Shown: positions 9,540 through 58,173 of the stretch, one piece after another
Numbering within the stretch: position 1 is the first letter of the stretch
How the letters are laid out: each line of letters starts with the position of its first letter
Assembly (NCBI GenBank): GCA_038321865.1
Contig: JBBQFH010000005.1
Span: 68,694-132,693 of the forward strand
DNA: 64,000 bases
Source of the DNA: Gemmatimonadales bacterium
GTDB lineage: Bacteria > Gemmatimonadota > Gemmatimonadetes > Gemmatimonadales > GWC2-71-9
Reading direction: 5' to 3'
The notes under the pieces: generated by a model
What the model was told of the DNA's origin: nothing
The model's input: only the letters and a program-made list of their open reading frames with translations
Database searches by the model: none
Program-made: the position numbers and the translations under genes

Positions 9540-10373
9540 ATGACCGACCGTCGCTCCTTTCTCGCCCTGTCCGCCGCCGCCCTCGGCGCCGGCCGACTGC
9601 ATGCGCTCGGCCAGGCGGCGCTGGGTGCCGCGCGGCTCGGCCGGATCGGCGTCCAGCTCTATACCCTGCGCGACGCGATGAAGCGCGACTTCGAGGGCAC
9701 GCTCGCCCGTGTGGCGAGCATCGGGTATCGGGAGGTCGAGTTCGCCGGCTACTTCGAGCGGCCCCCCGCCCAGGTGCGCCACGTGCTCGAGGCCAGCAGG
9801 CTCACGGCGCCCGCCGCGCACATTTCGCTGGAGGACATCCGCAACCGCTGGCCGCAGACGCTTGACGCCGCCCACACCATCGGGCACGACTACCTGGTGT
9901 GCGCGTGGATCAACGACGAGGACCGCACGGTGGACCGATACAAGCGCGTCGCCGACGAGTTCAGCCGCGCCGCGGAGACGGCACGGAAGGCCGGCATCGG
10001 CTTCGGTTATCACAACCATTCCTACGAGTTCGTGCCGATCGCCGGACAGCGGCCGTACGATATCCTGCTCGCCAACTCCGACCCGAAACTGGTGCAGTTC
10101 GAGATGGACCTGTTCTGGATCGTGCAGGGCGGCGGCGATCCGCTCGCCTACTTCGCGAAGTACCCGGGCCGCTTCCCGCTGGTCCATGTCAAGGATCGGG
10201 CGGCGGACGGCAAGATGGTGGACGTCGGCCAGGGACGGATCGACTTCCGGACGATCTTCGCGCACCGGAACCAGGCGGGGATCCGGCACTTCTTCGTCGA
10301 GCACGACGAGCCGGCCGACCCGTTCGTGAGCATCGCGGCGAGCTACGGCTACCTGCGCGGACTGCGTTTCTGA
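9540..10373 (+). CDS. Sugar-phosphate isomerase/epimerase-like TIM barrel (Tat)
   Basis: DRRSFL Tat signal; GVQLYTLR, YHNH, EMDLFW, HVKD, VEHD metal ligands. Confidence 0.88.
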   Translation: MTDRRSFLALSAAALGAGRLHALGQAALGAARLGRIGVQLYTLRDAMKRDFEGTLARVASIGYREVEFAGYFERPPAQVRHVLEASRLTAPAAHISLEDIRNRWPQTLDAAHTIGHDYLVCAWINDEDRTVDRYKRVADEFSRAAETARKAGIGFGYHNHSYEFVPIAGQRPYDILLANSDPKLVQFEMDLFWIVQGGGDPLAYFAKYPGRFPLVHVKDRAADGKMVDVGQGRIDFRTIFAHRNQAGIRHFFVEHDEPADPFVSIAASYGYLRGLRF

Positions 10374-10378
10374 CCGAC

Positions 10379-11239
<861 letters not shown>

Positions 11240-11260
11240 TGTGCGCGTCCCCGTGATGCC

Positions 11261-13189: not shown

Positions 13190-13240
13190 GCGCATAGCTT
13201 CAATTCTTCCGCAGTTCTACATCATACCTCACGAGGCTCC

Positions 13241-14935
13241 ATGGGCTTCGCACCTCCCCGCAAGACATACGACGTCTGCATCGTCGGCTCGGGCGCCGGC
13301 GGCGGCATGGCCGCACACATGCTCACCCAGGCCGGGGCCGACGTCGTCGTGCTCGAGGCCGGCGGCATGTGGGACAACATGAAGGACAGCGCCATGCTCA
13401 AGTGGCCGTACGACTCGGAGCGGCGCGGTGCCTCCACCAAGGAGCGGCCGTTCGGGGAGTTCGACGCCTGCATCGGCGGCTGGAGCATCGAGGGCGAGCC
13501 CTACACCCGGGCCCCCGGCACCCAGTTCGACTGGTGGCGCGCCCGGATGCTGGGCGGCCGGACCAATCACTGGGGCCGGATCTCGCTCCGGTTCGGTCCC
13601 GACGACTTCCGCGGCAAGAGCCGCGACGGCCTGGGAGACGACTGGCCCATCAGCTACGACGAAATCAAGCCCTACTACGACAAGGTCGACCAGCTGGTCG
13701 GCATCTTCGGCAGCCGGGAGAACCTGCCCAATCATCCCGACGGGTTTTTCCTCCCGGCACCGAAGCCCCGGTGTTACGAGTTGATGGTCAAGAAGGCATC
13801 CGACAAGCTGAAGGTCACCTGTATTCCCGCACGCCTCTCGATCCTCACGCGCCCGCTCAACGGCCGGCCTGCCTGTCACAACTGCGGTCAGTGCAACCGC
13901 GGCTGCGCCGTCAACGCCAACTTCACCTCCACCAACGTCCTGCTGCTTCCGGCCCTCAAGACCGGCAAGCTGACCATCCTGGCCAATGCCATGGCGCGGG
14001 AGGTGACGACGGACCGGAACGGCCTCGCCACCGGTGTCGCCTACGTCGACAAGGCGAGCGGCGCCGACGAACACGTGCTCGCGCGCGTCGTCGTGCTCGC
14101 GGCCAGCGCCTGCGAGTCGGCGCGCCTGCTGCTCAACTCGAGGTCATCCCGGTTCCCGCAGGGCCTGGCCAACTCGAGCGGTGTCGTCGGCAAGTACCTC
14201 ACCGACACCACGGGCACCGACGTCGCCGGCTTCATCCCCAGGTTGATGGACCACGTGCCGCACAACGAGGACGGCGTCGGGGGCGGGCACATTTACATGC
14301 CGTGGTGGGTGGACAACCGGAAGGTGAACTTTCCGCGGGGATACCACATCGAGGTGTGGGGCGGGCTGGGCGCGCCGTCGTATGGATTCATGGGCGGCAT
14401 CCACCGCTATCCCACCGGCGGCGGCTACGGCGCCTCGCTCAAGAACGACTATCGCCGCTACTACGGCGCCACGGTCGGCTTCTCCGGCCGCGGCGAGATG
14501 ATTCCCAACGCCGATTCGTACTGCGAGCTCGACCCGGACGTGGTGGACAAGTACGGCATTCCGGTGCTCCGCTTCCACTGGAAATGGAGCGACCACGAAT
14601 ACAACCAGGTGAAGCACATGCAGGAGACGTTCCGGGCGCTCATCGCCGAGATGGGCGGGGAAGTGTTCTCCCCGATGCCGACCAAGGAACAGGGATACGG
14701 CATCGCGTCCGGCGGCCGCATCATCCACGAGCTCGGCGTGACCCGCATGGGGAAGGACTCGAAGACCTCGGTGGTGAACGCCAACTGCCAGGCCCATGAC
14801 GTGAAGAACCTGTTCATCGCCGATGGCGGGCCGTTCGTCTCCCAGGCCGACAAGAATCCCACCTGGACCATCCTCGCCCTCGCGATGCGGACGGGTGAGT
14901 ACATCGCCAGCCAGCGGAAGCAGGGGGCCGTATGA
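13241..14935 (+). CDS. GMC family FAD oxidoreductase (second paralogue)
   Basis: GSGAGGG, GGRTNHWGR, CHNCGQCNRGC, IHELGVTRMG, NPTWTILAL. Confidence 0.9.
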   Translation: MGFAPPRKTYDVCIVGSGAGGGMAAHMLTQAGADVVVLEAGGMWDNMKDSAMLKWPYDSERRGASTKERPFGEFDACIGGWSIEGEPYTRAPGTQFDWWRARMLGGRTNHWGRISLRFGPDDFRGKSRDGLGDDWPISYDEIKPYYDKVDQLVGIFGSRENLPNHPDGFFLPAPKPRCYELMVKKASDKLKVTCIPARLSILTRPLNGRPACHNCGQCNRGCAVNANFTSTNVLLLPALKTGKLTILANAMAREVTTDRNGLATGVAYVDKASGADEHVLARVVVLAASACESARLLLNSRSSRFPQGLANSSGVVGKYLTDTTGTDVAGFIPRLMDHVPHNEDGVGGGHIYMPWWVDNRKVNFPRGYHIEVWGGLGAPSYGFMGGIHRYPTGGGYGASLKNDYRRYYGATVGFSGRGEMIPNADSYCELDPDVVDKYGIPVLRFHWKWSDHEYNQVKHMQETFRALIAEMGGEVFSPMPTKEQGYGIASGGRIIHELGVTRMGKDSKTSVVNANCQAHDVKNLFIADGGPFVSQADKNPTWTILALAMRTGEYIASQRKQGAV

Positions 14936-15549
14936 GCGAGCTGAACCGCCGGGACGTGCTCCGCATGCTCGGGGTGAGCGTCGCCGCCGCGACGATGTCA
15001 TGCACACCCGAGGTCGCGGACAAGGCGCATCAGGCCGGACAGGCAGCGCGCGACAGTGCCGCCGCGACGGGCGGGAAGGTGCCGACGAAATTCTTCACTC
15101 CGCATGAGCACGCGACCGTGACGCTGCTCGCCGACCTGATCATCCCAAAGGACGACCGCTCCGGGAGCGCGAGTGACGCCGGCGTGCCCGAGTTCATGGA
15201 CTACATCCTCACCGAGTACCCCGATGGCCAGACCGCGATCCGCGGCGGCCTCGCGTGGCTCGACAACGAGTCCCGCGACCGCTACGACAAGGCGTTCGTC
15301 GACTGCAGCGTCCCGCAGCGAAAGGCGCTGCTCGACGACATCGCCTGGCCGAAGAAGGCCAGGCCCGAGCTGAGCCAGGGGGTGGCGTTCTTCAACCGGT
15401 TCCGCGACTTCACGGCGTCCGGCTTCTTTTCCAGCAGGATGGGGACGGAGGACCTGCGCTACATCGGCAACACCGTGGTGCCTGTCTGGAACGGCTGTCC
15501 GCCGGAGGCGCTCGCCAGGCTCGGCGTGTCCTACGAGGGCTACACATGA
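14932..15549 (+). CDS. Gluconate 2-dehydrogenase subunit-3 family protein (Tat, possible lipoprotein)
   Basis: NRRDVL Tat motif followed by TMSC; IIPKDDRSGSA, TASGFFSS. Confidence 0.85.
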   Translation: MSELNRRDVLRMLGVSVAAATMSCTPEVADKAHQAGQAARDSAAATGGKVPTKFFTPHEHATVTLLADLIIPKDDRSGSASDAGVPEFMDYILTEYPDGQTAIRGGLAWLDNESRDRYDKAFVDCSVPQRKALLDDIAWPKKARPELSQGVAFFNRFRDFTASGFFSSRMGTEDLRYIGNTVVPVWNGCPPEALARLGVSYEGYT

Positions 15550-16787
15550 GCGGGAGACCCCTGGGCGTCGGCTTCATCGGCAGCGGCTTCAACGCCCGCT
15601 TCCACATGCAGTCGTGGACCGGTGTCCGCGACGCCGACGTACTCGGCGTGTGGAGTCCCAATGCCGCGCGCGCCGGTGAGGCGGCCGCGTACGCACGGAA
15701 GCTCGATATCGGCCGCGCCAGGGCGTACCGGTCGATCGGCGAGATGGTGGCCGATCCGAAGATCGATGCGCTCTGGCTCTGCGGGCCGAATCAGGCCCGG
15801 ATCGAGAACGTCGAGGAGATCGTGGACGCGATCGAGCGCGGCAAGGGAGAGCTCAAGGGACTCGCCTGCGAGAAGCCGCTGGCCCGGAACGTCGCCGAGG
15901 CGAACGAGGTCATCCGGCTGGTGCGGCGCGCCGGGCTCGCGACCGGCTACCTGGAAAATCAGCTCTTCGCGCCGCAGGTCGAAACCGGCCGGAATCTGAT
16001 CTGGGCGCGCGGCGCGAAGCTCACCGGTCGTCCCTATCTCGCGCGCGCCGCCGAGGAGCACAGCGGCCCGCACATGCCGTGGTTCTGGCAGGGGAAGCTG
16101 CAGGGCGGCGGCGTGCTGAACGACATGATGTGTCATTCGGCGCTGGTCGTCCGCCATCTGCTGACCCGGCCGGGCGAGCCGCTGTCGACCGTCGCGCCGG
16201 TCAGTGTCACGGCCCGGATCGCGAGCCTCAAGTGGTCGCGCCCGGCGTACGCCAGGAAGCTCAAGCGTACCATGGGATCCGAGGTGGATTACCGCCGCCG
16301 CCCCTCGGAGGACTTCGCCAGCGTCACCATCGAATTCATGACCGATGACGGTTACCGGGTCTTCGGCGAAGCCACGACGTCGTGGAGCTTCGTCGGCGCC
16401 GGCCTCAGGCTCTCCGCCGAGCTGCTGGGGCCCGAGTATTCGATGTCATGGAACACCCTCGATGCGGGGCTCAAGCTGTTCTTCAGCCGGGAAGTGTCGG
16501 GTCGCGCGGGGGAAGATCTCGTCGAAAAGCAGAATGCCGAGACCGGCCTGATGCCGGTGGTGGCCAACGAGCCGATGGCGTACGGCTATGAGGCCGAGAA
16601 TCGGCATTTCGTCCGCGTGTTTCAGGGAAAGGCGAAGCCACTGCTGACGTTCGAGGACGGCCTCGAGGTCGTGAAGATGCTGATGAGTGCCTACATGAGC
16701 GCGGAACAGGGGCGCACGATTGCGTTTCCGCCGCGCGGACTGGCCGGCTTCATGCCGGCTGTTGCGAAAGGGAAGTGGAGACCGTGA
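15546..16787 (+). CDS. Gfo/Idh/MocA family oxidoreductase (cytoplasmic)
   Basis: GFIGSGFNA Rossmann motif, CEKPLA, GGGVLNDMMCH; ATGA overlap. Confidence 0.88.
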   Translation: MSGRPLGVGFIGSGFNARFHMQSWTGVRDADVLGVWSPNAARAGEAAAYARKLDIGRARAYRSIGEMVADPKIDALWLCGPNQARIENVEEIVDAIERGKGELKGLACEKPLARNVAEANEVIRLVRRAGLATGYLENQLFAPQVETGRNLIWARGAKLTGRPYLARAAEEHSGPHMPWFWQGKLQGGGVLNDMMCHSALVVRHLLTRPGEPLSTVAPVSVTARIASLKWSRPAYARKLKRTMGSEVDYRRRPSEDFASVTIEFMTDDGYRVFGEATTSWSFVGAGLRLSAELLGPEYSMSWNTLDAGLKLFFSREVSGRAGEDLVEKQNAETGLMPVVANEPMAYGYEAENRHFVRVFQGKAKPLLTFEDGLEVVKMLMSAYMSAEQGRTIAFPPRGLAGFMPAVAKGKWRP

Positions 16788-17554
16788 CGAGCGCAAAGAT
16801 CGCGGGACTGGCGATGTTGGCGGCTGTGGCCACGGCCGGCCCATGTCTGGCCCAGGGCGACCGGACGTGGCCGCCCAATTCGATGGACCGTCCCCGGCCG
16901 CCGGTTATTTCGGCGCCGGCCGGCACGGCGGGACTGGTTCCGCCGCCCTCGGACGCAGTCGTACTCTTCGACGGCAAGTCGGCCGCCGCGTGGCAGACCG
17001 ACAGCGGCGCACCGGTGAAGTGGACGCTGCGCGGCGGGTATCTCGAGGTCGCGCCCGGCGCGGGCACCATCCGCACGCGACGCAGCTTCGGCAGCGTGCA
17101 GCTGCACGTGGAGTGGGCCTCCCCGGTGCCGGCCGAAGGCGAGAGCCAGGAGCGGGGCAACAGCGGCGTGTTCCTGATGGGTCGCTATGAGATCCAGGTA
17201 CTCGATACCTACCACAACCTGACCTACGCCGATGGCATGGCCGGCGCCGTGTACGGCCAGACGCCGCCGCTGGTGAACGCGAGTCGCGCGCCGGGCCAGT
17301 GGCAGACGTACGACATGGTGTTCCATCGTCCGCGCTTCGACGCGCGCGGCAACGTCACCCGGCCGGCGCGGGTCACCGTGCTGCACAACGGCGTGCTGGT
17401 GCAGGACAACACCGCGATCACCGGATGGACCGTGCACGGAGAAATCGCGAAGTATCAGCCGCACGCCGACCGCCTGCCGCTCGCCCTCCAGGATCATGGC
17501 CGCAAGGTTCGGTACCGGAACATCTGGCTTCGGGAGCTCGCCGACACGGACTGA
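16784..17554 (+). CDS. DUF1080 / 3-keto-glycoside hydrolase-like protein, secreted
   Basis: LFDGKS, GNSGVF, YEIQVLD, LQDHG..VRYRNIW; signal peptide. Confidence 0.88.
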
Positions 17555-17679: not shown

Positions 17680-18093
17680 ATGTCCCTCGCACGGTTGGTT
17701 GGTTCAGCGGGTGTGCTCGCGCTGGTCGCGGTGCACCCGCTGCTCGCGCAGAAGCCGGTGGCCGCAACTTCCGCAAAGCCCCGCCCTGCCGCCGCGGCCC
17801 CGGCCCCGGCCGCCGCCGCCGGGGCGGCTCAGCCCTCCGCCTCGCCGGTCAGGGCGCCGGCCGCGACCAGCACCAGAACGACGGCCACGACCACGGCGGC
17901 CGCGACGCTGCTCGATCTCAATGCCGCATCCGCCGATCAGCTGGCGGCGCTGCCGGGAATCGGTACGGCATATTCGGCGAAGATCGTGCAGGGCCGGCCC
18001 TATCGTGCCAAGGACGACCTGGTCCGCCGGCACATCATCCCCGCGGCGACGTACGCGAAGATCAAGGACAAGGTGATCGCGCGGCAGAAATAG
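17680..18093 (+). CDS. ComEA-like helix-hairpin-helix DNA-binding protein, secreted
   Basis: GGAGG RBS; signal peptide; Ala/Pro/Thr linker; [29 protein letters not shown]. Confidence 0.85.
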
Positions 18094-18099: not shown

Positions 18100-18840
18100 T
18101 CAGCACTTGATGGGCGAATCCCATTTGGGGATTTGCTGCGGTTGCGGAGAGGGAGGAACCGAATGGGGCGCCGCGGATGGAGTGGGCCGCGGTGCCTCAT
18201 TGCGTGTGCGCGGCCCGCCGCCGGCCGCCGCGGTGATCAATGCAAGGCTTCCGGCGACCGTGGCAACGGCCAGACGGCGGCGCCCGGAGTGCCGCTTGCG
18301 CTCGATCCGCTCCGCAAGCGCAAAGGCCAGCACGGCCCCCACGACGAGCAGCGCGACCCCAGCACCCTTGGAAAGCCCCGCCAGTCCGTACCAGGTGACG
18401 GGGCCAAGCGGTGTAGCGTCGAAGAGAGGCCGAATCCAGTGAAAAAGCTCGGCGAAGGCAAAGGTCCCCGCCAGCATCCCGCCAATCAGTGCCAGCGCGT
18501 CGCCCCGCCCGGCGGCCGCCGCGACGCACGACGTTCCCGGGCAGTAACCGCCGACGACGAACCCGACGCCGAAAATGAGTCCACCGATCAGCTGCGGCAG
18601 CACGTAGGTCGGCGGCAGGTACACGGCCGCCGGATCGAGCCATCCCATGCGGGCCAGCCAGAACAGCCCAGCGGCAGCCGTCACGATCGCCGTCATCATC
18701 ACCTTCAGCACCGTGAGGTCGGTGAGGGTGAACTGTGCGGCGAGCTTGCGCGGGTCGGCCAGGCCGGCGCGCTCGAGGACTGCCCCGAACGCGGCCCCGA
18801 TCGGCAGCGCGAGCCAGAGTGCCGCGCGGGGAGAGATCAT
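18100..18840 (-). CDS. YeeE/YedE family sulfur-compound transporter subunit with Pro-rich tail ending in Cys
   Basis: FGAVLERAG, GGLIFGVGFVVGGYCPGT; tail ...PKWDSPIKC-stop. Confidence 0.85.
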   Translation of the reverse strand: MISPRAALWLALPIGAAFGAVLERAGLADPRKLAAQFTLTDLTVLKVMMTAIVTAAAGLFWLARMGWLDPAAVYLPPTYVLPQLIGGLIFGVGFVVGGYCPGTSCVAAAAGRGDALALIGGMLAGTFAFAELFHWIRPLFDATPLGPVTWYGLAGLSKGAGVALLVVGAVLAFALAERIERKRHSGRRRLAVATVAGSLALITAAAGGGPRTRNEAPRPTPSAAPHSVPPSPQPQQIPKWDSPIKC

Positions 18841-19355
18841 CGCCACTGCTTCCGGGACAGCGCGACCGCTCCATAGGCACCCGCGAAAAGCGCCAGCATG
18901 AACACCCAGCTGCCGGCAGCGAGCACGGCGCCGCCGCTCAGCGCCTGCCCACTGGTGCAGCCGCGCGCCAGTCGCGCGCCGAAGGCCATGACGGTTCCAC
19001 CGGCGAATGCCATCAGCACACGGCCTGGCCGCCGCGTGGTCGGCCCTCGTTCGACCACCGCATGCCACCGCCCTGCGGCGGCGGCGGAGATCGCCCCTCC
19101 CACGGCCATCCCGGCCACTTCGAGCAGCAGCCAGTTGACCATCGGTCCGCCCGCCTCGTCGCCCGCATCCCGGTAGACCGGATTCGCCATGACGCGGGCC
19201 GGCGCTACAGTCTCGACCCCCAACGATACCATGCGCATGAACGCACCGGAGGCGCCGAGCCCGCGCCCCACCAGCACGAACGTGCCCAGCAGCACGATCC
19301 CCAACGCGAGGCCGGCCGCGTACGGATTCCAGTAGCGGGGAAGCTGCGTGCTCAC
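18837..19355 (-). CDS. YeeE/YedE family sulfur-compound transporter subunit
   Basis: YWNPYAAG, GLGASG, FGARLARGCTSGQALSG. Confidence 0.87.
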   Translation of the reverse strand: MSTQLPRYWNPYAAGLALGIVLLGTFVLVGRGLGASGAFMRMVSLGVETVAPARVMANPVYRDAGDEAGGPMVNWLLLEVAGMAVGGAISAAAAGRWHAVVERGPTTRRPGRVLMAFAGGTVMAFGARLARGCTSGQALSGGAVLAAGSWVFMLALFAGAYGAVALSRKQWR

Positions 19356-20746
19356 GCGCTCCTCCGCTGAGGGATGGCCGTCGGCAGCTCAGGATGCGTC
19401 CAGCTTCCCGCCACGGGATCGAGCACGTAGCCGCGCCGGAATCGTCCGGCCGCGATCTCCGCCAGAGCGGTGACCAGCATGTCCACGTCATCCTCGGTGT
19501 TCTGCAGTCCGATGCTCGCGCGGACCATTCCGGGGGCGTCCGACCGGTCACCGCGCAGGATCCGGAGCTGCGCCTGGGCTTCAGCGAGCGGAGAGAGGCC
19601 CAGCAACCGCTTTACGTACGGATGGGCGCAGAAGCATCCGCTGCGGGTCCCGATGCCCCACTCGTCAGCCAGAATCTCGGCGACCAGGGCGTGAGGCAGT
19701 CCGGCGACGTTGAACGGGATGACACCCAGACGGTCGTCGGCGTCGGCCGGCTCGGCATCTCCGTACAGGGTCACGCCGGGAATAGCCCCGATCTCCAGAC
19801 GTGCGCGCGACGCGAGCGCCCTCTCGTGCTCGATGATGCGCGACCAGCCAATTTCGCCGTAGATCCGCATTGCGGCGCCGAGCGCCACCGCGCCCAGAAC
19901 GTTCGGCGTCCCCGCCTCTTCCCGGTCCGGCAATTCCGTCCATGCGACGGCATCGGGGTCCACGGTTTCCACCGTGCCGCCGCCCGACTGATAGGGCCGG
20001 TCCGGATCGAACAGCGCCGCTGGCGCGACGAGCACGCCGATGCCGAACGGCGCGTACATCTTGTGGGCGGAGAATGCGACGATGTCCAGATGCTCGGGAT
20101 CGTCCGGATCGCCGACGTTGATCTGACGGTGCGGCGCCAGCTGCGCCGCATCCACCGCGATGCGCGCACCGGATTCATGCAGCCAGCGCGCCCAGCGATG
20201 CACCGGGTTCACGATACCGGTGACGTTCGATGCACCGCTCACCGCGAACAACGCCACCCGCCGCCCGTATTCGCGCAGCCTGGCTCGCAGGTCGCGCTCA
20301 TCCACCCGGCCCGACGCGTCCACCGCCACGTGGACGACCCGCGCGACGTTCCGCCACGGGAGATCGTTCGAGTGATGCTCCATCCCGCTCACCAGGACCA
20401 CCGCCCCCGGCTCGAACCGGTACGAGGCCGCGACGTGGTTGAGCGCCTCGGTGGTGTTCCGGCCGAACAGCACGACACTACGACTCGAGTCGGCGCCGAC
20501 GAACCGCTGGACGTCCTGGCGGGCCGAGTCGTACGCATCGCTGGAGATGCGCGACTTGAATCCCGCCCCGCGGTGCACACTGCCGTACCACGCCGCCATG
20601 CCGCCGATCGCGTCCAGCACCCTCGCAAACGGTGGCGTGCTCGCCGCGTTGTCGAAGGGGACGTAGCGTCGCTCGCCGCCGCCGAGCACCGGCACGCGTG
20701 CGTCCGAGCCCGTCACGACTCCGGCCAACCCGGCGATGCGCGTCAC
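19352..20746 (-). CDS. Class V PLP enzyme, cysteine desulfurase/selenocysteine lyase-like
   Basis: FDNAAST, EHHSN, VDAAQ, SAHKMYAP (PLP Lys), EAGTPN, catalytic-loop RSGCFCAHP. Confidence 0.87.
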   Translation of the reverse strand: MTRIAGLAGVVTGSDARVPVLGGGERRYVPFDNAASTPPFARVLDAIGGMAAWYGSVHRGAGFKSRISSDAYDSARQDVQRFVGADSSRSVVLFGRNTTEALNHVAASYRFEPGAVVLVSGMEHHSNDLPWRNVARVVHVAVDASGRVDERDLRARLREYGRRVALFAVSGASNVTGIVNPVHRWARWLHESGARIAVDAAQLAPHRQINVGDPDDPEHLDIVAFSAHKMYAPFGIGVLVAPAALFDPDRPYQSGGGTVETVDPDAVAWTELPDREEAGTPNVLGAVALGAAMRIYGEIGWSRIIEHERALASRARLEIGAIPGVTLYGDAEPADADDRLGVIPFNVAGLPHALVAEILADEWGIGTRSGCFCAHPYVKRLLGLSPLAEAQAQLRILRGDRSDAPGMVRASIGLQNTEDDVDMLVTALAEIAAGRFRRGYVLDPVAGSWTHPELPTAIPQRRSA

Positions 20747-21666
20747 TGCCCTGCCGCCGCGGTGTGATGGCTGTCGCCCTCGACGGGCAGGTCGGCCCGC
20801 GCGCTCCATTCCTGAAACGATCCGTCATAGAGCCGCGCGTCATAGCCGAGCGAGCGCGCCACCAGGCGGACCCAGCTCCCCTGCTGCCCGATGTGGCAAT
20901 AGACGACGAGGATACGGCCCGGCGCGGCGCCCGCGGCACGGAACGCACTCCGCAGTGCGCCCTCGCTCTTCAGGTTGTCCAGCGAATCTGTCAGGCTGGT
21001 GTAGGGGATGCTGTGCGCGCCGGGAATGTGCCCGCCGCGCGGCATGCTGCTCTTGATGGTGTCGAGGTAAAATCCCGCGTCCCGCGCGTCGATGATCGCC
21101 ACCTTCGGATCGTGCAGGTGCGCCTGGACGAAGTCAGCGGACACGAAGTAGGCCGGATGTGGCCGGGTACGGGCCGTTCCGGGCGACACGGAGGGGAGGT
21201 CGGCGGTGAGGGCGCCGCCGCTCCGCCGCCATCCCTCCGCGCCGCCCTCCATGAAGCCGACTCGGCCACCGAACCCGGCCCAGTCCAGCGTGAGCGCCAG
21301 ACGGGCGGTCGGAGTCACCCATCCGCTGGTGGCGTACACCACGATTCTCGAGTCGTCCGTGATGCCCAGTGTTCGCAGCGTGGAGTCGAAGCGCGCGGAC
21401 GTGGGCAGTTCGAGCGCCAGGCCTGGATGCTGCTTGCCATCCATCGCCATCGGCGCGGTGAATGCGTGGAAGTCGACGTAACGCGCGCCCGGCAGATGCA
21501 GGGAATCGTACGCCGGCCGGGGGCCGACAGTCAGGATGATCAGCCTGGGATCCGTCAGATGAGCCTTCACCCATGCCGGGCTGACGACCAGCGGCACCGC
21601 CGGATCGGCCGGCTGTCTGGGTGCGCCGTTCATGGAGAGGAGCGCGGCGGCGAAATGAGCGATCAT
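20743..21666 (-). CDS. Tandem-domain rhodanese sulfurtransferase, probably exported
   Basis: Hydrophobic N-terminus; HLPGA and GHIPGA repeats; active loop YCHIGQQG; YDGSFQEW. Confidence 0.88.
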   Translation of the reverse strand: MIAHFAAALLSMNGAPRQPADPAVPLVVSPAWVKAHLTDPRLIILTVGPRPAYDSLHLPGARYVDFHAFTAPMAMDGKQHPGLALELPTSARFDSTLRTLGITDDSRIVVYATSGWVTPTARLALTLDWAGFGGRVGFMEGGAEGWRRSGGALTADLPSVSPGTARTRPHPAYFVSADFVQAHLHDPKVAIIDARDAGFYLDTIKSSMPRGGHIPGAHSIPYTSLTDSLDNLKSEGALRSAFRAAGAAPGRILVVYCHIGQQGSWVRLVARSLGYDARLYDGSFQEWSARADLPVEGDSHHTAAAGQ

Positions 21667-21704
21667 GGCGGAACCTCCGGTGGATGAAGTCGAACCCCGA
21701 CGAC

Positions 21705-21786
21705 ATCATAGGGAGGCGGTCACCGGCAATGGCGCAGGTTCGGTCGCCGATTCGTGCGAGTTCTGTGCGGAGATGTCGCGAAGGGG
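21705..21786 (-). promoter_or_regulatory. Putative activator-dependent promoter of the rhodanese operon (-10 TATGAT plus 11-bp direct repeats)
   Basis: TATGAT at 21710-21705; plus-strand GTGCG cores at 21754 and 21765, TCGCG at 21776. Confidence 0.55.
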
Positions 21787-21789
21787 CCG

Positions 21790-22479
21790 TCAGGGACGGA
21801 AGCGGTATCCCACCTTCCAGACCGTGAGGAAATGACCGGGCTCCGCCGCGTCGTCCTCGAGCTTGCGGCGAAGTTCCGCCATATGCGAGTCGACGGTGCG
21901 CGTAAGCACGTCGCCCTCCTGGCCCCAGACCTCGCGCAGCAGGTCCACGCGAGTCGCCACCGCGCCGTTGCGGCGCACCAGCGCAAGCATCAGCTCGTAC
22001 GCCTTGGGCGTGAGCGTCACGGCAGCGCCGGAGCGGGTGACTCCGCGCGATGCGGGTTCCACCTCGATCGTGCCGAAGCGAATCGGCGCCAGCGCGGGAT
22101 GCGCCGCGCCGTTTGCGGCCCGTCGGAGCAGCGAGCGGATCCGTTCGAGCAGCTCGAGCAGGCCGAACGGCTTCGTGACGTACTGGTCAGCATCGAGCCG
22201 GAAGCCCCGCACCTTGTCCGCCTCTTCGCCGCGGGCGCTGAGAATCAGCACCGGCACCCGGTTGCCCGCGGCGCGCATGGCCTGCAGTACCCGATAGCCA
22301 TCCACGCCCGGCAGCATCAGATCGAGCACGACGAGATCGGGGCGCCACTGGCGGGCCAGCTCGATCGCGCGGTGCCCGTCGCCGGCGACGGACACTTCAT
22401 ATCCCTCGAGCTCAAGGTTGTACCGTACGCCATCAGCCAGCTCGGCGTTGTCCTCGACCACGAGGATGCGGCTGGTCAT
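21790..22479 (-). CDS. OmpR/PhoB family response regulator
   Basis: VEDN, LDLMLP phospho-Asp, TKPF, winged helix TRTVDSHMAELRRKL, VWKVGYRF. Confidence 0.93.
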   Translation of the reverse strand: MTSRILVVEDNAELADGVRYNLELEGYEVSVAGDGHRAIELARQWRPDLVVLDLMLPGVDGYRVLQAMRAAGNRVPVLILSARGEEADKVRGFRLDADQYVTKPFGLLELLERIRSLLRRAANGAAHPALAPIRFGTIEVEPASRGVTRSGAAVTLTPKAYELMLALVRRNGAVATRVDLLREVWGQEGDVLTRTVDSHMAELRRKLEDDAAEPGHFLTVWKVGYRFRP

Positions 22480-24119
22480 GGCGACACGCCAACGGGCGCG
22501 GGACGAGTCGCCGGCAGGCCAGGAATCTCGATGATGACGGTCGTGCCGCGCGATACGTTGGGATCGATCCAGGCACTGCCGCCGTGGCGCTCCACCGCCT
22601 CACGCACGACGGACAGGCCGATCCCACTTCCGCCGATGGCCCGCACATCGGGACTGCGACCGCGGAAGTATGGCTCCCACACCCGTTCCCGCTCGGCCGG
22701 CGGGACGCCGGGGCCTTCGTCCGCGACGCTGACGCGAACGGAGGATCCGCGAGTCGTAGCTCCAACGGTGACGGTCTGGCCCGGCGGCCCGTATTTCACC
22801 GCGTTGTCGAGCAGGTTGAGCACCAGTTGGCGGAAGCGCGCCCGATCGAGCGGCGCGACCAGGCCCGGCGCAAGCTCCATGCGAATCTCCACCCGGCGCG
22901 AGCGCGCCAGCGGCGCGAATGCCCGGACGGTCTCTCCGACTTCCGTGGCCACATCAAGGGGCTCGAGTGGCGGCGGCGTGGGCTGATGGCCCGCCGGGGA
23001 AAACTGCAGCACGTTATCCACCAGGTTCCCCAGCCGAGTGGTTTCGCGGTCCAGGTGGGCAAGGAGCCATTCGCGCTGTTCCTCGGTCTCGAACCGGCCG
23101 AGTCGCAGTGTTTCGAGAAACAGGCGTACCTGTGCGAGCGGTGTACGCAGCTCGTGGGAGACACTGGAGACGAAATCGGAACGCAGCCGTACGAGCTCGC
23201 TTTCGCGGCGGAGCTGGCGCAACGCGACCACCGCGAGAGCAGCTGAAATCAGGACCAGTGCAAGGAGGAGACCGGATGTCGACCGTCCGCCCCGCAGTAC
23301 CTGCCCTGCCAGCGCCGGGCGAACCGCGGCGGTGATGTGGAGGCCCGCCGCCGCGGTGCGGACTGTGTCATTGGCCGCTCGGCTCCAGTCCGCATCGCTG
23401 GATGATGCGAACAGCCGGACGCCGCCCGCAGTGGTGACCCGCACGGCCAGAATCGAGTCGTTGGGCAGGCCGCGGGTGACCGCCGCCGGGAGCAGCCCGT
23501 TCGCCGTAAACGCATCCGCAAAGACCGCGGACATCGTCGCCGGATCGAAGGTGAAGCCGTAGACGATCGTGTCAGCATGCCAGTTCGGCATCAGGCCGTA
23601 CGCGAACATGCGCTCCTGCCCGTGCACCCGCCCGGACACCAGCGCCATCCGCTCGCTCGTCCGGGCCAGCCCCCGTAACCTGGCGGTCAGTTCGGAGTGG
23701 ATCCAGCGCCGCATAGCGGAATCCGGCTCGGCGCCGGCGGTCCCCATCGTGTCGGCGCCGAGCGTGAAGGCAAAGAACATTTCGGCGCGATACTTCGGAT
23801 TGCAGTTGCACTGGGCGAGCGACGTGCGCTGGTAGTCGAGCAGGCGGGCGGCGCTCGGATGGTTCAGCAGCATGTGGGTTTCCCGATGCAGGATCGGGTT
23901 GAGCACCTGCCACCCTGCTTCACTCAGCGCATTGTTCACATGGCGCTGGTAGCTCCACGCCGCGAATGCCGCGTAGTCATGCACCAGCTGTTCCGCTGTC
24001 TGCCGCTGGAGCCGCGCCGCGCGCTGGGCCTGGATCGCCGCGAGCGCCATTGCGGCGAATGTCGCGACGAGCAGGAGGAGTGACCAGGCGATCGGGCGAC
24101 TGGGACGCGAAACGGGCAA
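22476..24119 (-). CDS. Membrane sensor histidine kinase
   Basis: Two TM segments flanking an extracytoplasmic domain; H box VSHELRTPL, N box NLLDNAVKY, DEGPG, GSGIGL; start uncertain (TTG 24119). Confidence 0.9.
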   Translation of the reverse strand: MPVSRPSRPIAWSLLLLVATFAAMALAAIQAQRAARLQRQTAEQLVHDYAAFAAWSYQRHVNNALSEAGWQVLNPILHRETHMLLNHPSAARLLDYQRTSLAQCNCNPKYRAEMFFAFTLGADTMGTAGAEPDSAMRRWIHSELTARLRGLARTSERMALVSGRVHGQERMFAYGLMPNWHADTIVYGFTFDPATMSAVFADAFTANGLLPAAVTRGLPNDSILAVRVTTAGGVRLFASSSDADWSRAANDTVRTAAAGLHITAAVRPALAGQVLRGGRSTSGLLLALVLISAALAVVALRQLRRESELVRLRSDFVSSVSHELRTPLAQVRLFLETLRLGRFETEEQREWLLAHLDRETTRLGNLVDNVLQFSPAGHQPTPPPLEPLDVATEVGETVRAFAPLARSRRVEIRMELAPGLVAPLDRARFRQLVLNLLDNAVKYGPPGQTVTVGATTRGSSVRVSVADEGPGVPPAERERVWEPYFRGRSPDVRAIGGSGIGLSVVREAVERHGGSAWIDPNVSRGTTVIIEIPGLPATRPAPVGVSP

Positions 24120-24146: not shown

Positions 24147-24225
24147 ACTGTAGCGGCCGGGCCTGGTGCCAGCAATGCCGACCTGGTGCTGGAATTGTGC
24201 GGAAACGGTGCGAAGTTGGTTGCGG
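24147..24225 (-). promoter_or_regulatory. Putative promoter of the two-component operon with 11-bp direct repeats
   Basis: TTGCTG-N17-TACAGT (24175-24147); plus-strand GTGCT 24186, GTGCG 24197, GTGCG 24208, TTGCG 24220. Confidence 0.55.
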
Positions 24226-24232: not shown

Positions 24233-24988
24233 TCAACGCTGAGGGGAGACGGATGCCTTGCCGATGAGCTCCACCAGCCGGCGGATTCGGTTTGCATCCG
24301 TGACCATGCGGGAGCCCTCCGGCGGCACCGCCCTGATCATCGACACGAGTGGATTGTGGAACTGCATCTGGTCGGTCTTGACCGAAACACCACGCGCATG
24401 CACCTCGCTGACCCCGGTGGCACCGATCAGCGCGGCCACGTTTTTTTCGCTGACGCCGCCTCCGGCCAGCACGATGATGCGGCCGGCGGCCTGCCGAACC
24501 AGCGCGGCGAGGGCGACTGCGCCCTCGAGAGCCGTGGCGGCCTGACCCGATGTCAGCACGCGGTCGACTCCGAGCTCGATCAACTCCTCGAGGCCTCGGC
24601 TGGCGTCCCGGCACCCGTCGAAGGCGCGGTGGAAGGTGACCGCCATCGGCCGGGCAGTCTCGACGAAGCGAGCGGTCGTCTCCAGGTCGACGCGTCCGTC
24701 TGACCGAAGGGCGCCGATGACTACACCATCCACCTCGAGCTCGCGGCACATGATGATGTCGCGACACATCGCCTCGACCTCGAGATTCGAATACACGAAG
24801 TCGCCGCCGCGGGCGCGAATCAGTACGAAAAGCGGTATGCCGACCTGCTCCCGGCATACCGCGATGATTCCGGCACTCGGTGTCGTCCCGCCTTCGGCGA
24901 GATTGTCGCACAGCTCCAGCCGGCCCGCGCCACCCGCCTCGGCGGCCAGCGCGGACTCGATCGAGTCCACGCAGGCCTCCAGGATCAC
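24233..24988 (-). CDS. cutC: CutC family protein
   Basis: LEACVDS, RLELCDNLAEGGTTPS, LIRARGGDFVY, TFHRAFD, RVLTSG. Confidence 0.92.
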   Translation of the reverse strand: MILEACVDSIESALAAEAGGAGRLELCDNLAEGGTTPSAGIIAVCREQVGIPLFVLIRARGGDFVYSNLEVEAMCRDIIMCRELEVDGVVIGALRSDGRVDLETTARFVETARPMAVTFHRAFDGCRDASRGLEELIELGVDRVLTSGQAATALEGAVALAALVRQAAGRIIVLAGGGVSEKNVAALIGATGVSEVHARGVSVKTDQMQFHNPLVSMIRAVPPEGSRMVTDANRIRRLVELIGKASVSPQR

Positions 24989-26316
24989 AACGTCCAGCCC
25001 TTCCGATACACCGGCTTGAGATACTCGGGCGGCACACCGGTATTCCTGATCTCACCCGTTTCCGAATTGAGCTCGATCGGCTGCTGCATGCGCACCGCAA
25101 AATTGCCCAGCAGCACCATCTGGGTCAGCGGCCCCGAATGACCGTTGAAGTTGGAGCCCGGCTGGGTGCCGCCCTTGATCGCGGCGATCCACTCCTTGTG
25201 GACCCCCTCGGTGCGTGGATACTTCTGCGCCGGCGGATGCGCCTTGAGCTCCTTGTCATGCGCGGGGTCCACGAGCCGGACATTGTCACCGTACACATCG
25301 GCCACGAGCATGCCGGCGGTGCCGACCCAGAGCTGGTGGCCGGGATCGCCGCCGAGCGGCCAGATCGCGTCCGCCGGATATCCGGCCGGCCGGCCCGGCG
25401 TCAGGCCGCCGTCGCGCCAGAACACCTTCAACGCGGGCCGGGTGCCGCGGGCGGGAAACTCATAGATGATGCGCGACATCTTGGGCGCGGTCTCGGCGTA
25501 GGTCGGCGACGTCTCGGCTTCGATGCGTGTCGGAAACCCGAGGTTGAGCGTCCAGAATGCCGCGTCCATCGCATGAGGCGCGATGTCACCGAGGGCGCCA
25601 CAGCCGAAATCCCACCAGCCACGCCAGCGGAATGGAGCGTAGGCGGGATTGTAGGGGCGTTCGTTCGCCGGGCCCAGCCAGAGGTTCCAGTCGAGCGTGG
25701 GCGGGACGTTGAACGCCTCGCTCGGCCGGTCGATGCCCTGGGGCCAGATGGGGCGGTTGGTCCAGTAGTGGACCTCCTTCACCGCGCCGATTGCGCCGGC
25801 CTCCACCAGCTCGCGAATGAGCCGGGTGCCGGCGCCGGCATGTCCCTGATTGCCCATCTGCGTCGCCAGTTTCGGTGACCGGCGTGCCTGCTCCATCAGC
25901 GCCCGCACCTCGCCGATGGTCCGGGCCAGCGGCTTCTGGCAGTACGTGTGCTTCCCGGCCCGAAGCGACAGGAGCGCGGCAGCGGCGTGCGAGTGGTCCG
26001 GCGTCGACACGGTGATCGCATCGATATTCTTTCCCTCCTTGTCGATCATCTCGCGGTAGTCCTTGTACCGCCGGACCTTCGGATAGGTCTTGAAGGCGTC
26101 CTCGGCGCTCTTCCAGTCCACGTCGGCAAAGGCGACCAGGTTCTCGCCGCTCATGCCGGTCACGTCGTTCCGACCCATGCCCCCCACCCCGATGCACGCT
26201 ACATTCAGCGTGTCGCTCGGCGCGCGGTATCCGCGGCCCAGCACATGCCGCGGTACGATGGTGAACAGGCCGGCCGCCGCGCCGGTCCCGACGAACTTTC
26301 GCCTCGACACTCCCAT
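24985..26316 (-). CDS. Gfo/Idh/MocA family oxidoreductase (Tat)
   Basis: SRRKFV Tat signal; IGVGGMG, TPDHSH, YCQKPL, QMGNQG, WRGWWDFGCGALGD. Confidence 0.9.
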   Translation of the reverse strand: MGVSRRKFVGTGAAAGLFTIVPRHVLGRGYRAPSDTLNVACIGVGGMGRNDVTGMSGENLVAFADVDWKSAEDAFKTYPKVRRYKDYREMIDKEGKNIDAITVSTPDHSHAAAALLSLRAGKHTYCQKPLARTIGEVRALMEQARRSPKLATQMGNQGHAGAGTRLIRELVEAGAIGAVKEVHYWTNRPIWPQGIDRPSEAFNVPPTLDWNLWLGPANERPYNPAYAPFRWRGWWDFGCGALGDIAPHAMDAAFWTLNLGFPTRIEAETSPTYAETAPKMSRIIYEFPARGTRPALKVFWRDGGLTPGRPAGYPADAIWPLGGDPGHQLWVGTAGMLVADVYGDNVRLVDPAHDKELKAHPPAQKYPRTEGVHKEWIAAIKGGTQPGSNFNGHSGPLTQMVLLGNFAVRMQQPIELNSETGEIRNTGVPPEYLKPVYRKGWTL

Positions 26317-26334
26317 GCGATCTCCTTTGGTAGA

Positions 26335-27543
26335 CTATGCGGCGGCTGTGCCCGCCCGCGAAGCGGGGCGGAACAGCAGTGCGAACGTGACCAGCACCAC
26401 CAGCGCCATCACCGCCGGCACCATCCAGATCGACTGCCAGTCGTGCCCGGAGCCGTCGGCCAGCTTCCAGTTGTCCACCACCGACCCCGAGACGAACGCG
26501 CCGACGAAATATCCCAGCCCGTTGGTCACGAAGTTGATGAATCCCTGTGCCGCCGCGCGGATTGTCACGCCGGCCTTCTCGTCGGTGTAGATCTGGCCAC
26601 CCACGAAGAAGAAGTCGTAGCAGATGCCGTGCAGCAGGATGCCGATGTAGATGAGCCACATGCCGGCACCCGCGTTGCCGTTGCTGAAGGCGAAGTAGCG
26701 CAGCGACCAGGCCAGCATGCCGCCGAGCATGATGCCCTTGATGCCGAAGCGCCGGAGGGCGAAGGGTAGCAACAGCATGAAGAAGAACTCGGACATCTGG
26801 CCGAAGGTCTGGATGTAGGCAGCGTCGCGCACCCCGATCTCGTTGAGATACGCGTTGGTCCAGGTGTAGTAGAACTGCAGCGGCACGCAGAGCAGGAACG
26901 ACCCGATCACGAAAATGAGGAACGAGCGGTCCTTCAGCAGCCCCAGGGCGTCGAGTCCCAGCGCGTCACGCGCGCTGAACGGCGTGCCGGCCGCCTTGGG
27001 CGGCGTGTGCGGCAGCACCAGCGAGAAGAGGCCGAGTACGATTGAGCCGATTGCTCCCACGCGCATCGGCAGGGCGAGCGGGTCGGCGTGCATGACGCGC
27101 CCGATCAGGACGCCCGCCACGATCCAGCCGATGGTGCCGAGTACCCGGATCTTCGGAAAGTCCCGTGCCGGGTCGGCGATATGGTGGAACGAGATCGAAT
27201 TGGTGAGCGAGAGCGTGGGCATGTAGCAGAGGGCGTAGAGAATCAGAACCGGATAGAAGCTCCCGAACGTCGTCTGGGTGGACACCAGCCAGAGCAGCAC
27301 GCCGCCGATCAGGTGCAGCACGGCGAGCAGTTTTTCGCTCGCGAAGAACCGGTCGGCGACCATGCCGACGAAGAAGGGCGTCACCAGCGCCGCGATCGCG
27401 GTCGCGCCGTACGCCAGTCCCACCTCGCGGCCGCTGAAGTGCAGCGTCTGGGACAGATAAGTCCCCATGGTGACGAACCACGAGCCCCAGATGAAGTACT
27501 GCAGAAACATCATCACGGACAGCCGCACGCGGGTGCTGGTCAT
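26335..27543 (-). CDS. MFS transporter, nucleoside:H+ symporter (NupG-like) family
   Basis: [36 protein letters not shown]. Confidence 0.9.
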
Positions 27544-28277
27544 GGCAGCACCCGGATCTTGATGTTCCGGAGCGAGAGTGTGCCGTCGTGATCGCCCTGG
27601 AAGGCGATGTAGCCCCGTTGGAGCTTCCCGTACTCGGGCCACGCGGCGAACTTGCTGGCCTTCACCTTGGCGGTCCAGTCGGCGCTTCCCAGCTCGTATT
27701 CCAGCAGCTTCCTGCCGTTCATCCAGTGCTCGACGTGGGATCCGTTCACCACGATCCGGCCGCTGTTCCATTCGCCCACCCGATGCAGCACCCCGATCGG
27801 CGACGGATAGAGTCCGTATGCCGCACCCGCCGAGGTCAGGCGGCTGCGGCCGTCGGGCGCGCCCAGGTCGTCGAGCAGCTGGTATTCCGGCGCGGTCCAG
27901 TAGATGTGCTCGTACGCCTCGTTGCCCCGGTAGAAGACGCCGGCGTTCCCCCCTGCGCCGAGCTGCCAGTCGAACGCGAGCTCGAAGTTGGCGAACTGTT
28001 CGGTCGTCATGATGTCTTCGGTGCTGCTCGACTTGGTCAGCGTGCCGTTCACGGCCTTCCAGCCGGCCGGCACGGCCTGCATCTTGTAACCGCGCCAGCC
28101 GTCGAGCGTCCGCCCATCGAACAGCAGGCGCCAGCCGTCCCGCTGTTCCCTGCTCGAGAGCCGGTTGAAGTGTCCCGCCGGCGACACGCTTCCGCCGCCC
28201 TGGCTGCAGGACAGCGTCGCGCATACGAACAGCAGGACCGGCAGCAGTGCCACACGGGCGGGCAGGCGCAGAATCAT
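27540..28277 (-). CDS. DUF1080 / 3-keto-glycoside hydrolase-like lipoprotein
   Basis: Lipobox [45 protein letters not shown]. Confidence 0.87.
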
Positions 28278-28392
28278 CGTCGTCTCGATCGGAGTCATTG
28301 TAGGGGAAGCGGGTGCCATCGGCAGACCCGCCTCAGAATACGATTCATGCCCGCTGAGCGAAAGGCCGGCCAGCCCGAACCACGGAGCGCGC

Positions 28393-29526
28393 GTGCCTCA
28401 CCGGTGGAAGCACCTGACCCTGCCCGTCTCATTGCTGTTGGCGCTCCTGCCGCGTGCCCTGCCGGCGCAGCAGCCCCGCCGCACCGAAAACGTCGTCCTG
28501 ATCGTCACCGACGGGCTCCGCTGGCAGGAGCTGTTCCGCGGCGCCGATTCGGCGCTCATCGATGCGCGCTGGGGCGGGGTCGAGGACACGGCCGGCACGC
28601 GCCGCGCCTTCCGGCGGCCGACGATCGAGGCGACGCGCGGGGCGCTGCTGCCGTTCATCTGGGGCCAGGTCGCGCAGCAGGGGCAGATCTTCGGCAACGT
28701 GCCGCGCGGCAGCGTGGCGACCGTCACCAACGGGCTCAAGTTCTCGTATCCCGGCTATAACGAGATGATCTCCGGCCGGCCCGATCCGCGTATTGACCGC
28801 AACGATGCCGGCCCGAACCCGAACGTGACGGTGTTCGAGTGGCTGAACGGCCGTGCCGGCCTGAAGGGACGGGTCGCGGTCTTCGGCACCTGGGACGCGT
28901 TCCCGGCCATCTTCAATCGCGGCCGGAGCGGCCTCCCCATCCACGCGGGTTGGGAGGTGCCATTCGTCGCGCATCCCGCGGCGGGCCAGGCCGCGATCAA
29001 TCGGCTCTACGCGACCACGACGCGGCTCTGGGATGACCTCGCCTACGACGGGTTCATGCAGGCCGTGGTGCTCGATTACGTCCGGGCGCGGCGCCCGCGG
29101 CTCCTGTTCGTCGGCTATGGCGAGACGGACGAATGGGCGCACAGCCGGCGTTACGACCAGACACTCCGCTCCGCCCAACGGGTAGACGGGTTCATCGCGG
29201 AGCTGTGGAACACGATGCAGGGAATGCCCCAGTATCGCGGTCGGACCACGTTCATCATCACTACCGACCACGGCCGCGGCGCCACCCGGGAGGACTGGAC
29301 CGACCACGGGAAAAACGTCGTGGGTGCCGAGAACATCTGGATCGCTGTGATCGGGCCCGATACCCCGGCGGTCGGGGAAGTCACCGGAGGGGTGCGGGTC
29401 ACCCAGGGCCAGATCGCCGCCACGATCGCCGCGCTGCTGGGCGAAGACTACCGGGCTGTCGCCCCGGACGCTGCGCCGCCGCTCGCGTGGGCCATCCCGT
29501 CGCTCGTGCCGGCCGGCGTCCGGTGA
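28393..29526 (+). CDS. Alkaline-phosphatase-superfamily protein, secreted
   Basis: VLIVTDGLRW, FSYPGY (putative Ser nucleophile), ETDEWAH, TTDHG metal ligands; start approximate. Confidence 0.8.
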   Translation: MPHRWKHLTLPVSLLLALLPRALPAQQPRRTENVVLIVTDGLRWQELFRGADSALIDARWGGVEDTAGTRRAFRRPTIEATRGALLPFIWGQVAQQGQIFGNVPRGSVATVTNGLKFSYPGYNEMISGRPDPRIDRNDAGPNPNVTVFEWLNGRAGLKGRVAVFGTWDAFPAIFNRGRSGLPIHAGWEVPFVAHPAAGQAAINRLYATTTRLWDDLAYDGFMQAVVLDYVRARRPRLLFVGYGETDEWAHSRRYDQTLRSAQRVDGFIAELWNTMQGMPQYRGRTTFIITTDHGRGATREDWTDHGKNVVGAENIWIAVIGPDTPAVGEVTGGVRVTQGQIAATIAALLGEDYRAVAPDAAPPLAWAIPSLVPAGVR

Positions 29527-58169: not shown

Positions 58170-58173
58170 GCGA

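Follow-up and report, generated by a model that had tools for sequence, protein, structure and literature searches.

A six-gene cassette around a split YeeE channel

The DNA analyzed here, referred to throughout as the window, is a stretch of 64,000 nucleotides from a Gemmatimonadales bacterium (contig JBBQFH010000005.1). It contains a cassette of six minus-strand genes, approximately 6 kb in length, four of which are structural: a rhodanese, a desulfurase-like pyridoxal phosphate (PLP) enzyme and two YeeE/YedE-type half-transporters, preceded by a histidine kinase and a response regulator (Table I). An original prediction, made from the letters alone, had proposed that these genes form a regulated sulfur or selenium relay across the inner membrane. 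Open reading frames and domain searches confirm the six genes with their motifs, the kinase and OmpR-type regulator upstream of the four-gene unit, and the 4-bp overlaps, which join kinase to regulator, rhodanese to PLP enzyme, PLP enzyme to YeeE1 and YeeE1 to YeeE2; regulator and rhodanese are separated by a gap of 123 bp. The arrangement is real and combines known parts in a way for which a search of open papers gave no description, and with good confidence we regard it as a trans-membrane sulfur relay working in one direction or the other.

Table I. Positions of the cassette genes and associated elements in the window
Feature	Position	Strand	Characteristics
Histidine kinase	22476..24119	-	HisKA and HATPase_c; TTG start; 547 residues
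OmpR/PhoB-type response regulator	21790..22479	-	Response_reg and Trans_reg_C; 229 residues
Tandem-domain rhodanese	20743..21666	-	PF00581 twice; 307 residues
SufS-related (group II-like) cysteine-desulfurase-type PLP enzyme	19352..20746	-	PF00266; 464 residues; no leader
YeeE half 1 (YeeE1, PmpA-like)	18837..19355	-	PF04143; GCTSG; 172 residues
YeeE half 2 (YeeE2, PmpB-like, fused arm)	18100..18840	-	PF04143; YCPG; 246 residues
YeeE2 arm	18100..18282	-	Helix 187-207 and Pro-rich tail; Cys246 codon at 18103-18105
Tandem 11-bp repeat 5' of kinase, probable regulator site (autoregulation)	24184..24210	-	Weight matrix
Tandem 11-bp repeat 5' of rhodanese, probable operator for the four structural genes	21741..21767	-	Weight matrix

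Both YeeE halves score over the PF04143 cut-off (YeeE1 with the range 173–309). Profile alignment to the TsuA structures 8j4c and 6leo identifies YeeE1 as the C-terminal half of TsuA, its Cys133 (invariant in 61 of 61 homologs) falling on the outer residue C293, and YeeE2 as the N-terminal half with helices H1–H7, its Cys100 falling on C91. YeeE2 contains a second membrane cysteine, Cys105, which is likewise invariant (100/100), and has Ala28 at the position of TsuA C22, leaving no equivalent of that residue. The model of YeeE2, with a mean predicted local distance difference test (pLDDT) value of 83.8, matches the fold of 8k1r and 6leo; residues 7–181 align with TsuA residues 1–185 (Z 9.9, root-mean-square deviation 2.9, 170 aligned residues). 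Domain, fold and one cysteine at a TsuA position in each half thus assign the two proteins, on the sequence level, to the split YeeE/YedE pairs of the PmpAB type. The TsuA hidden Markov models give the halves 27–37 bits vs. cut-offs of 400–645, and the cassette appears to possess neither of the defining features of TsuAB, namely a single chain of nine membrane helices with three cysteines and a YeeD/TusA partner. The absence of TusA from the operon, already noted in the prediction, holds, and no PF01206 protein was found in the whole host genome (3.4 Mb, 89.85% complete) or in 18 of the 19 genomes carrying a rhodanese-type cassette. Apart from the cassette's own, the host genome contains no second YeeE pair. 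Labels on close protein relatives point to Gemmatimonadota, and a listing of sequencing runs gave one sediment metagenome, possibly the origin of this DNA, and none holding RNA.

According to passages of PMC7449682, TsuA has nine membrane helices, its N terminus outside and C293 on the periplasmic side. This topology implies that H7 of YeeE2 ends inside, with which a basic stretch at residues 179–189 agrees. Beyond H7, YeeE2 carries an additional helix followed by a poorly ordered Pro-rich tail (pLDDT about 55) whose last residue is Cys246. Because the additional helix provides one further crossing, this cysteine would lie outside, and the tail of this arm is predicted to be periplasmic. The Cys motif constitutes the C-terminal end in 21 top-ranked YeeE2 matches, including that of the window, and is lacking at the end of four further long matches that were aligned. 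In a sample of 401 genomes of the phylum, including the host (three of them, marked unpublished, enter the tallies only), 28 loci encode the YeeE1 subfamily, and an arm with a terminal cysteine is found in 25 of these, fused to the channel in 10 and encoded by a separate gene in 15; two arms are truncated, and in the remaining locus (L157) the arm failed the hydrophobicity filter, yet a gene for a Cys-ended arm is present. The background amounts to 33 of 1548 genes. A script applied to all 73 YeeE2 loci, near-duplicates included, returned 41 Cys arms, 18 truncated arms, 11 loci with none and 3 arms without cysteine. Most arms contain a rhodanese-like domain, while those of the window and a few others consist of anchor, linker and cysteine only, the smallest being a separate lipoprotein-like gene of 48 residues (L165). 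It is thus the Cys tail that is conserved in the arm. In locus L130 (5930–10563) a metallo-beta-lactamase (MBL)-fold/rhodanese protein and YeeE1 are followed by a YeeE2 fused to three rhodanese domains, and L133 is similar. Taken together, the TsuA topology, the single helix added to YeeE2, the lipoprotein-like arm of L165 and the YeeE2-rhodanese fusion of L130 place arm and rhodanese on the same side.

The rhodanese of the window comprises two domains with a single cysteine, Cys257, in the second one; the surrounding loop, CHIGQQ, is common to 114 of 120 homologs, and the closest solved structure is that of E. coli 3-mercaptopyruvate sulfurtransferase (1urh). The prediction had noted a hydrophobic N terminus and placed this protein in the periplasm. 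By a hydropathy heuristic, on which all leader calls are based, 95 of the 120 homologs could be scored (25 could not), and 92 of them have a long hydrophobic leader; among control proteins, 9 of 118 have one, and the two other tandem rhodaneses of the host genome lack such a leader. Export of the family is therefore well supported by its sequences, which do not refute the periplasmic assignment. As to the window's own copy, a leader of 26 residues exists, but it is weakly hydrophobic (the weakest among the top 30 homologs), has no basic n-region and passes the threshold only narrowly (2.11); this copy is likely exported as well, by means of a probable, if weak, Sec leader. A natural rhodanese-PLP fusion, P0024 (one of the top 120 matches), which would place both proteins in one compartment, was rejected as a probable frameshift because its junction looks like the common rhodanese C terminus read out of frame and a similar string occurs in an alternative frame of L147. 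Two rhodanese paralogs are encoded in L009, L099, L101, L102, L140 and L162.

The PLP enzyme contains the loop RSGCFCAHP, i.e. GCFC and not GHHC, and reaches 279.7 bits with the SufS model TIGR01979, whose cut-off is 475.1. Its score, its loop and the lack of a suf context indicate that it is not SufS proper. The canonical SufS lies elsewhere, as had been noted, at 56.9–58.2 kb of the window, where it passes the same model with 582.9 bits and belongs to a sufB-sufC-sufD-sufS operon (56.9–61.7 kb). Nevertheless, SufS proteins are the closest solved relatives of the cassette enzyme (E 2.8e-58), the catalytic-loop cysteine of B. subtilis SufS has C373 as its counterpart in the alignment, and H124, D199, Q202, K229, C371, C373 and R409 are invariant in 58 of 58 sequences. 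The enzyme thus has the residues of a group II (SufS/CsdA-like) cysteine desulfurase, and the SufS catalytic residues sustain the desulfurase-like character ascribed to it; lyase activity is predicted.

Related cassettes use a second desulfurase family, with the loop RGGCFCNPG, encoded after the arm (10 loci), whereas the window-type family, with RSGCFCAH, is encoded before YeeE1 (3 loci); the two are 25–33% identical. They lie far apart in a quick tree with long branches, the deep order of which is unsure. The seven cassette-linked GCFCAH enzymes fall into one clade with a support of 100, shared with 10 database proteins lacking context data, and this clade is nested among solitary relatives. 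We read this pattern to mean that the cassette acquired a persulfide donor on two separate occasions. The RGGCFCNPG enzyme is labelled only as a cysteine desulfurase family protein in the Atlas; its GCFCNPG motif makes it a possible relative of the NifS-like domain of molybdenum cofactor sulfurase (ABA3/MOCOS), and a search with the motif gave no relevant paper.

The window-type PLP family is mostly solitary: YeeE and rhodanese accompany it in only 2 of 80 genome loci, and 3 of its 18 matches in the phylum adjoin YeeE1, the other 15 not. Together with a DsrE2-like gene found repeatedly (12 of the 80 loci), this would suit an enzyme that is a co-regulated passenger serving cytoplasmic partners and not feeding the channel. 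We consider this very unlikely, as the cassette houses enzymes of two unrelated families, in tight coupling, and contains neither when the rhodanese is missing. The DsrE2/DrsE-like sulfur-carrier genes found near solitary GCFCAH-type desulfurases all belong to Bacillota; in L048 the gene (9317–9823) lies directly 3' of the desulfurase, and the other loci are L034, L035, L042, L044, L045, L050, L051 and L053–L056.

Distribution and control of the cassette

The YeeE1 subfamily is patchily distributed, being present in 27 of the 400 other genomes of the phylum and in none of five genomes of the same genus. Its 28 loci comprise 18 of the rhodanese type, 6 with PsrABC-like genes, 2 with Otr genes and 2 with neither. 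A desulfurase-like gene accompanies 13 of the 18 rhodanese-type loci (3 of the window type, 10 of the RGGCFCNPG type) and none of the 10 others, so that the gene set is indeed conserved together when judged by its neighborhoods; no p-value is attached to the counts, kinship making the genomes non-independent samples. Orthologs of the two-component system lie near 10 of the 18 rhodanese-type loci and 0 of the 10 others, but also near none of the three phylum loci that carry the window's PLP family; L013 has one 4 kb downstream. The exact six-gene layout of the window is thus a mosaic. In a tree of YeeE2 the rhodanese-type loci group only with unstarred support, and the placement of the window is not firm.

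Outside the rhodanese-type loci, the channel, mostly with a Cys arm, is found without desulfurase behind genes of a PsrABC-like molybdoenzyme or of an octaheme Otr with cytochrome b (L008, L142, L144, L145, L148, L149; L154, L156, L123, L132). A different split YeeE pair, recognized from translations only, follows cytochrome c and sulfite-oxidase-like genes in L011 (5391–9307, genome G025).

The kinase contains two transmembrane segments (residues 10–28 and 282–300) enclosing a periplasmic domain, approximately residues 30–281, with the motif C104-x-C106. C106 is invariant in the eight kinases aligned, and CxC, often extended to CxCH, is present in seven of them. The regulator orthologs beside the 10 rhodanese-type loci are 59–66% identical, and the sensor domain is alignable. 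The model of the kinase sensor is weak (pLDDT 67.6, 8 sequences), and matches to the kinase domain took up the whole fold search; an Atlas search with the sensor returned unnamed clusters first, all leads (CSS motif, CHASE4) being below 0.9.

The spacers between regulator and rhodanese contain CAC-type repeats with a period of 11 bp. A weight matrix built from these spacers in nine other genomes, with the window left out, scores the site 5' of the window's kinase at 15.4 (rank 12 of 6,798,880 genome positions) and the site 5' of its rhodanese at 12.7 (rank 42 of the same number). As an independent test, locus L157, whose sensor genes lie 4.7 kb away, scores 23.0 upstream of the rhodanese. The matrix is not significant in 13 other loci without the two-component system (one more was too short); upstream of the kinase it is significant in 5 of 10 loci and not in the other 5, and it matches in one of eight PsrA loci (p 0.04). 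The tandem repeats are thus probably an operator that tracks the two-component system across loci, in line with the control by its own sensor that had been proposed for the operon. A sigma-70 scan of the locus gave 0 promoters, and the 2 terminator-like sites, within YeeE2, correspond to chance level. Where the two-component system is missing, the upstream regulators are of the BlaI/BlaR1-M56, LytS-type kinase, PadR or GntR/MocR kinds (L009, at 13223–15618, L099, L140, L147, L155, L143).

Among the genes surrounding the cassette, a cutC-family gene (24233–24988, minus strand) precedes the kinase, and a comEA-like helix-hairpin-helix gene (17680–18093, plus strand) converges on YeeE2 with a gap of 6 bp; neither recurs in relatives. 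The cassette splits a run that, from translations only, resembles sugar/amino-sugar catabolism (7691–17554 and 24985–32503) and comprises oxidoreductases and deaminase-like, permease and glycosidase-like genes. Further away, the suf genes form part of a minus-strand run at 56009–62426, consisting of a helix-turn-helix regulator, sufB, sufC, sufD, sufS and a BrxA/BrxB bacilliredoxin gene, and a peroxiredoxin gene occupies 52714–53373.

Direction and purpose of the proposed relay

From the genes, residues, co-occurrence, topology by alignment and operator statistics observed here, we infer a series of chemical steps. Our preferred interpretation, to which we would give somewhat less than an even chance, is that of a sensor-controlled relay moving sulfane sulfur outward across the inner membrane. 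The cytoplasmic PLP enzyme, judged by its conserved residues, would convert L-cysteine to alanine and retain a persulfide on Cys373. The sulfur would then enter the YeeE1/YeeE2 heterodimer via Cys100/Cys105 and Cys133, in the form of persulfide or of HS-/short polysulfide; in this scheme the desulfurase stands where YeeD/TusA stands in TsuAB. On the outside, where structural alignment positions it, Cys246 of the arm would take over the sulfur and load Cys257 of the rhodanese, which might, and here we are guessing, pass it to periplasmic thiophiles such as sulfite, cyanide, metal/metalloid ions or exposed protein thiols, resulting perhaps in thiophile detoxification or in disposal of surplus cysteine sulfur. 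The kinase would read a thiol-reactive signal via its outside CxC, and the regulator, acting at the tandem repeats, would switch on its own gene along with the operon. The chain of desulfurase, YeeE pair and rhodanese drawn in the original prediction is partly supported and lacked the arm and Cys105. Its literal hand-over from cysteine to cysteine inside the channel is doubtful, as the TsuA cysteines are about 7 Å apart and direct transfer is questioned in passages of PMC11582611. We would go further with even more reserve, and suggest as a possibility that the cassette encodes a YeeE-family exporter, a sulfur counterpart of DsbD, with a SoxY-like tethered arm and a CxC kinase reading the periplasmic sulfane/thiol state.

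For an outward direction speaks that the desulfurases are found only with the exported rhodanese and that their chemistry fits a donor role. In ABA3-STR18 and in a bacterial fusion, a desulfurase is known to pass sulfur from cysteine on to a rhodanese, as described in part of 10.1101/2020.03.25.008375. Moreover, YeeD, described as essential for TsuA uptake in passages of PMC11073785, was not found here, which favors export.

A number of observations weigh against export. In the passages considered, TsuA and SoxT1A import (PMC11582611, PMC7449682), and YedE1E2 aids import, not export, of zero-valent sulfur (PMC10812762); export would run opposite to the tested YeeE-family proteins described there, all of which import. 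No periplasmic sulfur sink is encoded near the cassette, and the cytoplasmic cysteine equivalent to C22 is absent from YeeE2. Within the stretch read, a desulfurase is missing from five of the 18 rhodanese-type loci (one ends right after YeeE2), and the 11 armless loci among the 73 with YeeE2 include the desulfurase-bearing L009 and L013, and also L099 and L102; as each is missing in some loci, neither desulfurase nor arm is obligatory. Donating the sulfur of cysteine would be costly, since domains of 3'-phosphoadenosine 5'-phosphosulfate (PAPS) reductase and of sulfite reductase were not detected in the host genome. Finally, the host encodes two MBL-rhodanese proteins (L170, 5151–6578, contig C7; L172, 957–2375, contig C100), which are candidate persulfide dioxygenases by sequence and could consume imported sulfane sulfur.

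An alternative is import. Thiosulfate or polysulfide would lose its sulfane sulfur to the exported rhodanese, the arm would feed the outer Cys133 and the channel would carry the sulfur inward, where the desulfurase-like protein would replace YeeD as CxC-loop acceptor or chain primer and the sulfur would be used to make cofactors, to fill antioxidant pools of persulfide or by persulfide dioxygenases. This agrees with the direction of TsuA, SoxT1A and YedE1E2, with the loci from which desulfurase or arm is absent, and with a host genome in which sulfate assimilation genes were not found and the two MBL-rhodanese proteins are present. In addition, 8 of the 28 loci have channel and arm behind PsrABC-like/Otr genes without desulfurase, a setting for which uptake is proposed in part of PMC9324843. 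However, import requires the desulfurase to be an acceptor, yet its PLP active site is invariant and the enzyme was apparently recruited from two families; 6 of the 19 cassette genomes hold PAPS-reductase-family genes; and neither CysE nor CysK gave a match over the cut-off in the host genome, which leaves imported inorganic sulfur without an obvious path into cysteine. We regard import as rather unlikely.

A relay without net direction was also considered, in which the PLP enzyme would be a cysteine/selenocysteine lyase and arm and rhodanese would be kept persulfidated as a catalytic buffer, giving the envelope a redox or metalloid defence that deals with selenite, tellurite or thiophilic metals. 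The outside CxC of the kinase, often CxCH, would suit such a role, as would a weak match of the rhodanese to the Geobacter selenite/tellurite protein ExtH (46 bits vs. a cut-off of 200) and the SelD and tRNA-Sec carried by the host genome. Against it stands that no metal or selenium gene recurs in the flanks examined and that the arm ends show no sign of selenocysteine recoding. Furthermore, most genomes of the phylum encode selD (322 of 401), and it was not found in G069, G182 and G390 (98, 98 and 93% complete), which contain the full cassette. We judge defence improbable. Because these three genomes keep the full cassette, a role in selenoprotein supply likewise appears unlikely, and so does the selenium variant of the predicted relay, though some part in selenite defence is conceivable. 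Many selD genes of the phylum contain one in-frame TGA, consistent with a selenocysteine-containing SelD, and in genus g36 selD occurs in only 1 of 15 genomes.

The form and manner in which sulfane sulfur crosses the inner membrane are open even for characterized YeeE proteins, according to passages of PMC11582611. The cassette offers donor, channel, carrier and acceptor, each with a single cysteine, together with a sensor and an operator, and it suits reconstitution because its four structural genes fit into a compact 6-kb cassette and its arm is minimal. If the export we tentatively favor is true, the established direction of the family would be reversed and bacteria would possess a dedicated means of providing the envelope with sulfane sulfur or of discarding it there; if import is true, an arm that loads from outside and a YeeD-independent route would be revealed.

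Comparison with known sulfur transfer systems

The following comparisons draw on passages of the papers cited. PmpA/PmpB of Serratia, equivalent to YedE1/YedE2 of Cupriavidus pinatubonensis, belong to the split YeeE family (PMC10812762, PMC11582611). As in these systems, the channel of the window is encoded by two genes, with the equivalent of C293 in one half, that of C91 in the other and none of C22. Unlike them, its halves have 172 and 246 residues instead of about 130, YeeE2 keeping H7 and adding the arm and Cys105, and the genes that accompany it encode an exported rhodanese, a desulfurase and a two-component system, in place of the persulfide dioxygenase and ArsR repressor of those systems. 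A further account of a split YeeE concerns the yeeE-yedE-pdo2 operon (PMC7315123). With TsuA-TsuB (YeeE-YeeD; 6LEO, 8J4C, 8K1R; PMC7449682, PMC11073785) the cassette shares the fold and two of three channel cysteines, but its channel is split and 18–19% identical, it carries an outside Cys arm, and YeeD/TusA was not found.

The phsABC-pmpAB-sulfurtransferase cluster, for which PMC9324843 leaves function and substrate open, probably contains the same channel subfamily with a rhodanese-like third gene; its PsrABC-like counterpart is found in 6 of the 28 phylum loci. In contrast to the present cassette, the passages of PMC9324843 mention no arm cysteine, desulfurase or sensor. In ABA3-STR18 and the Pseudorhodoferax CD-Rhd fusion (10.1101/2020.03.25.008375), cysteine persulfide is handed to a rhodanese cysteine, as proposed here; the partners in those systems share a compartment, whereas in the cassette desulfurase and rhodanese would be separated by a membrane channel and an arm.

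A literature search of the main texts of open papers for a rhodanese, split YeeE, arm and desulfurase under a two-component system yielded no account of this set; passages of PMC13047784, PMC13490349 and PMC9312934 deal with YTD clusters and selenoproteins, not with this gene set. In general design the arm resembles a known carrier, SoxY, but it is tethered to the membrane by a YeeE half. In SoxY, a flexible C-terminal cysteine forms a swinging arm that carries sulfur in the periplasm, and Sud of Wolinella is a periplasmic rhodanese acting as sulfur carrier. What the analysis contributes for the window is a SufS-related enzyme, a minimal fused arm and an operator tested statistically.

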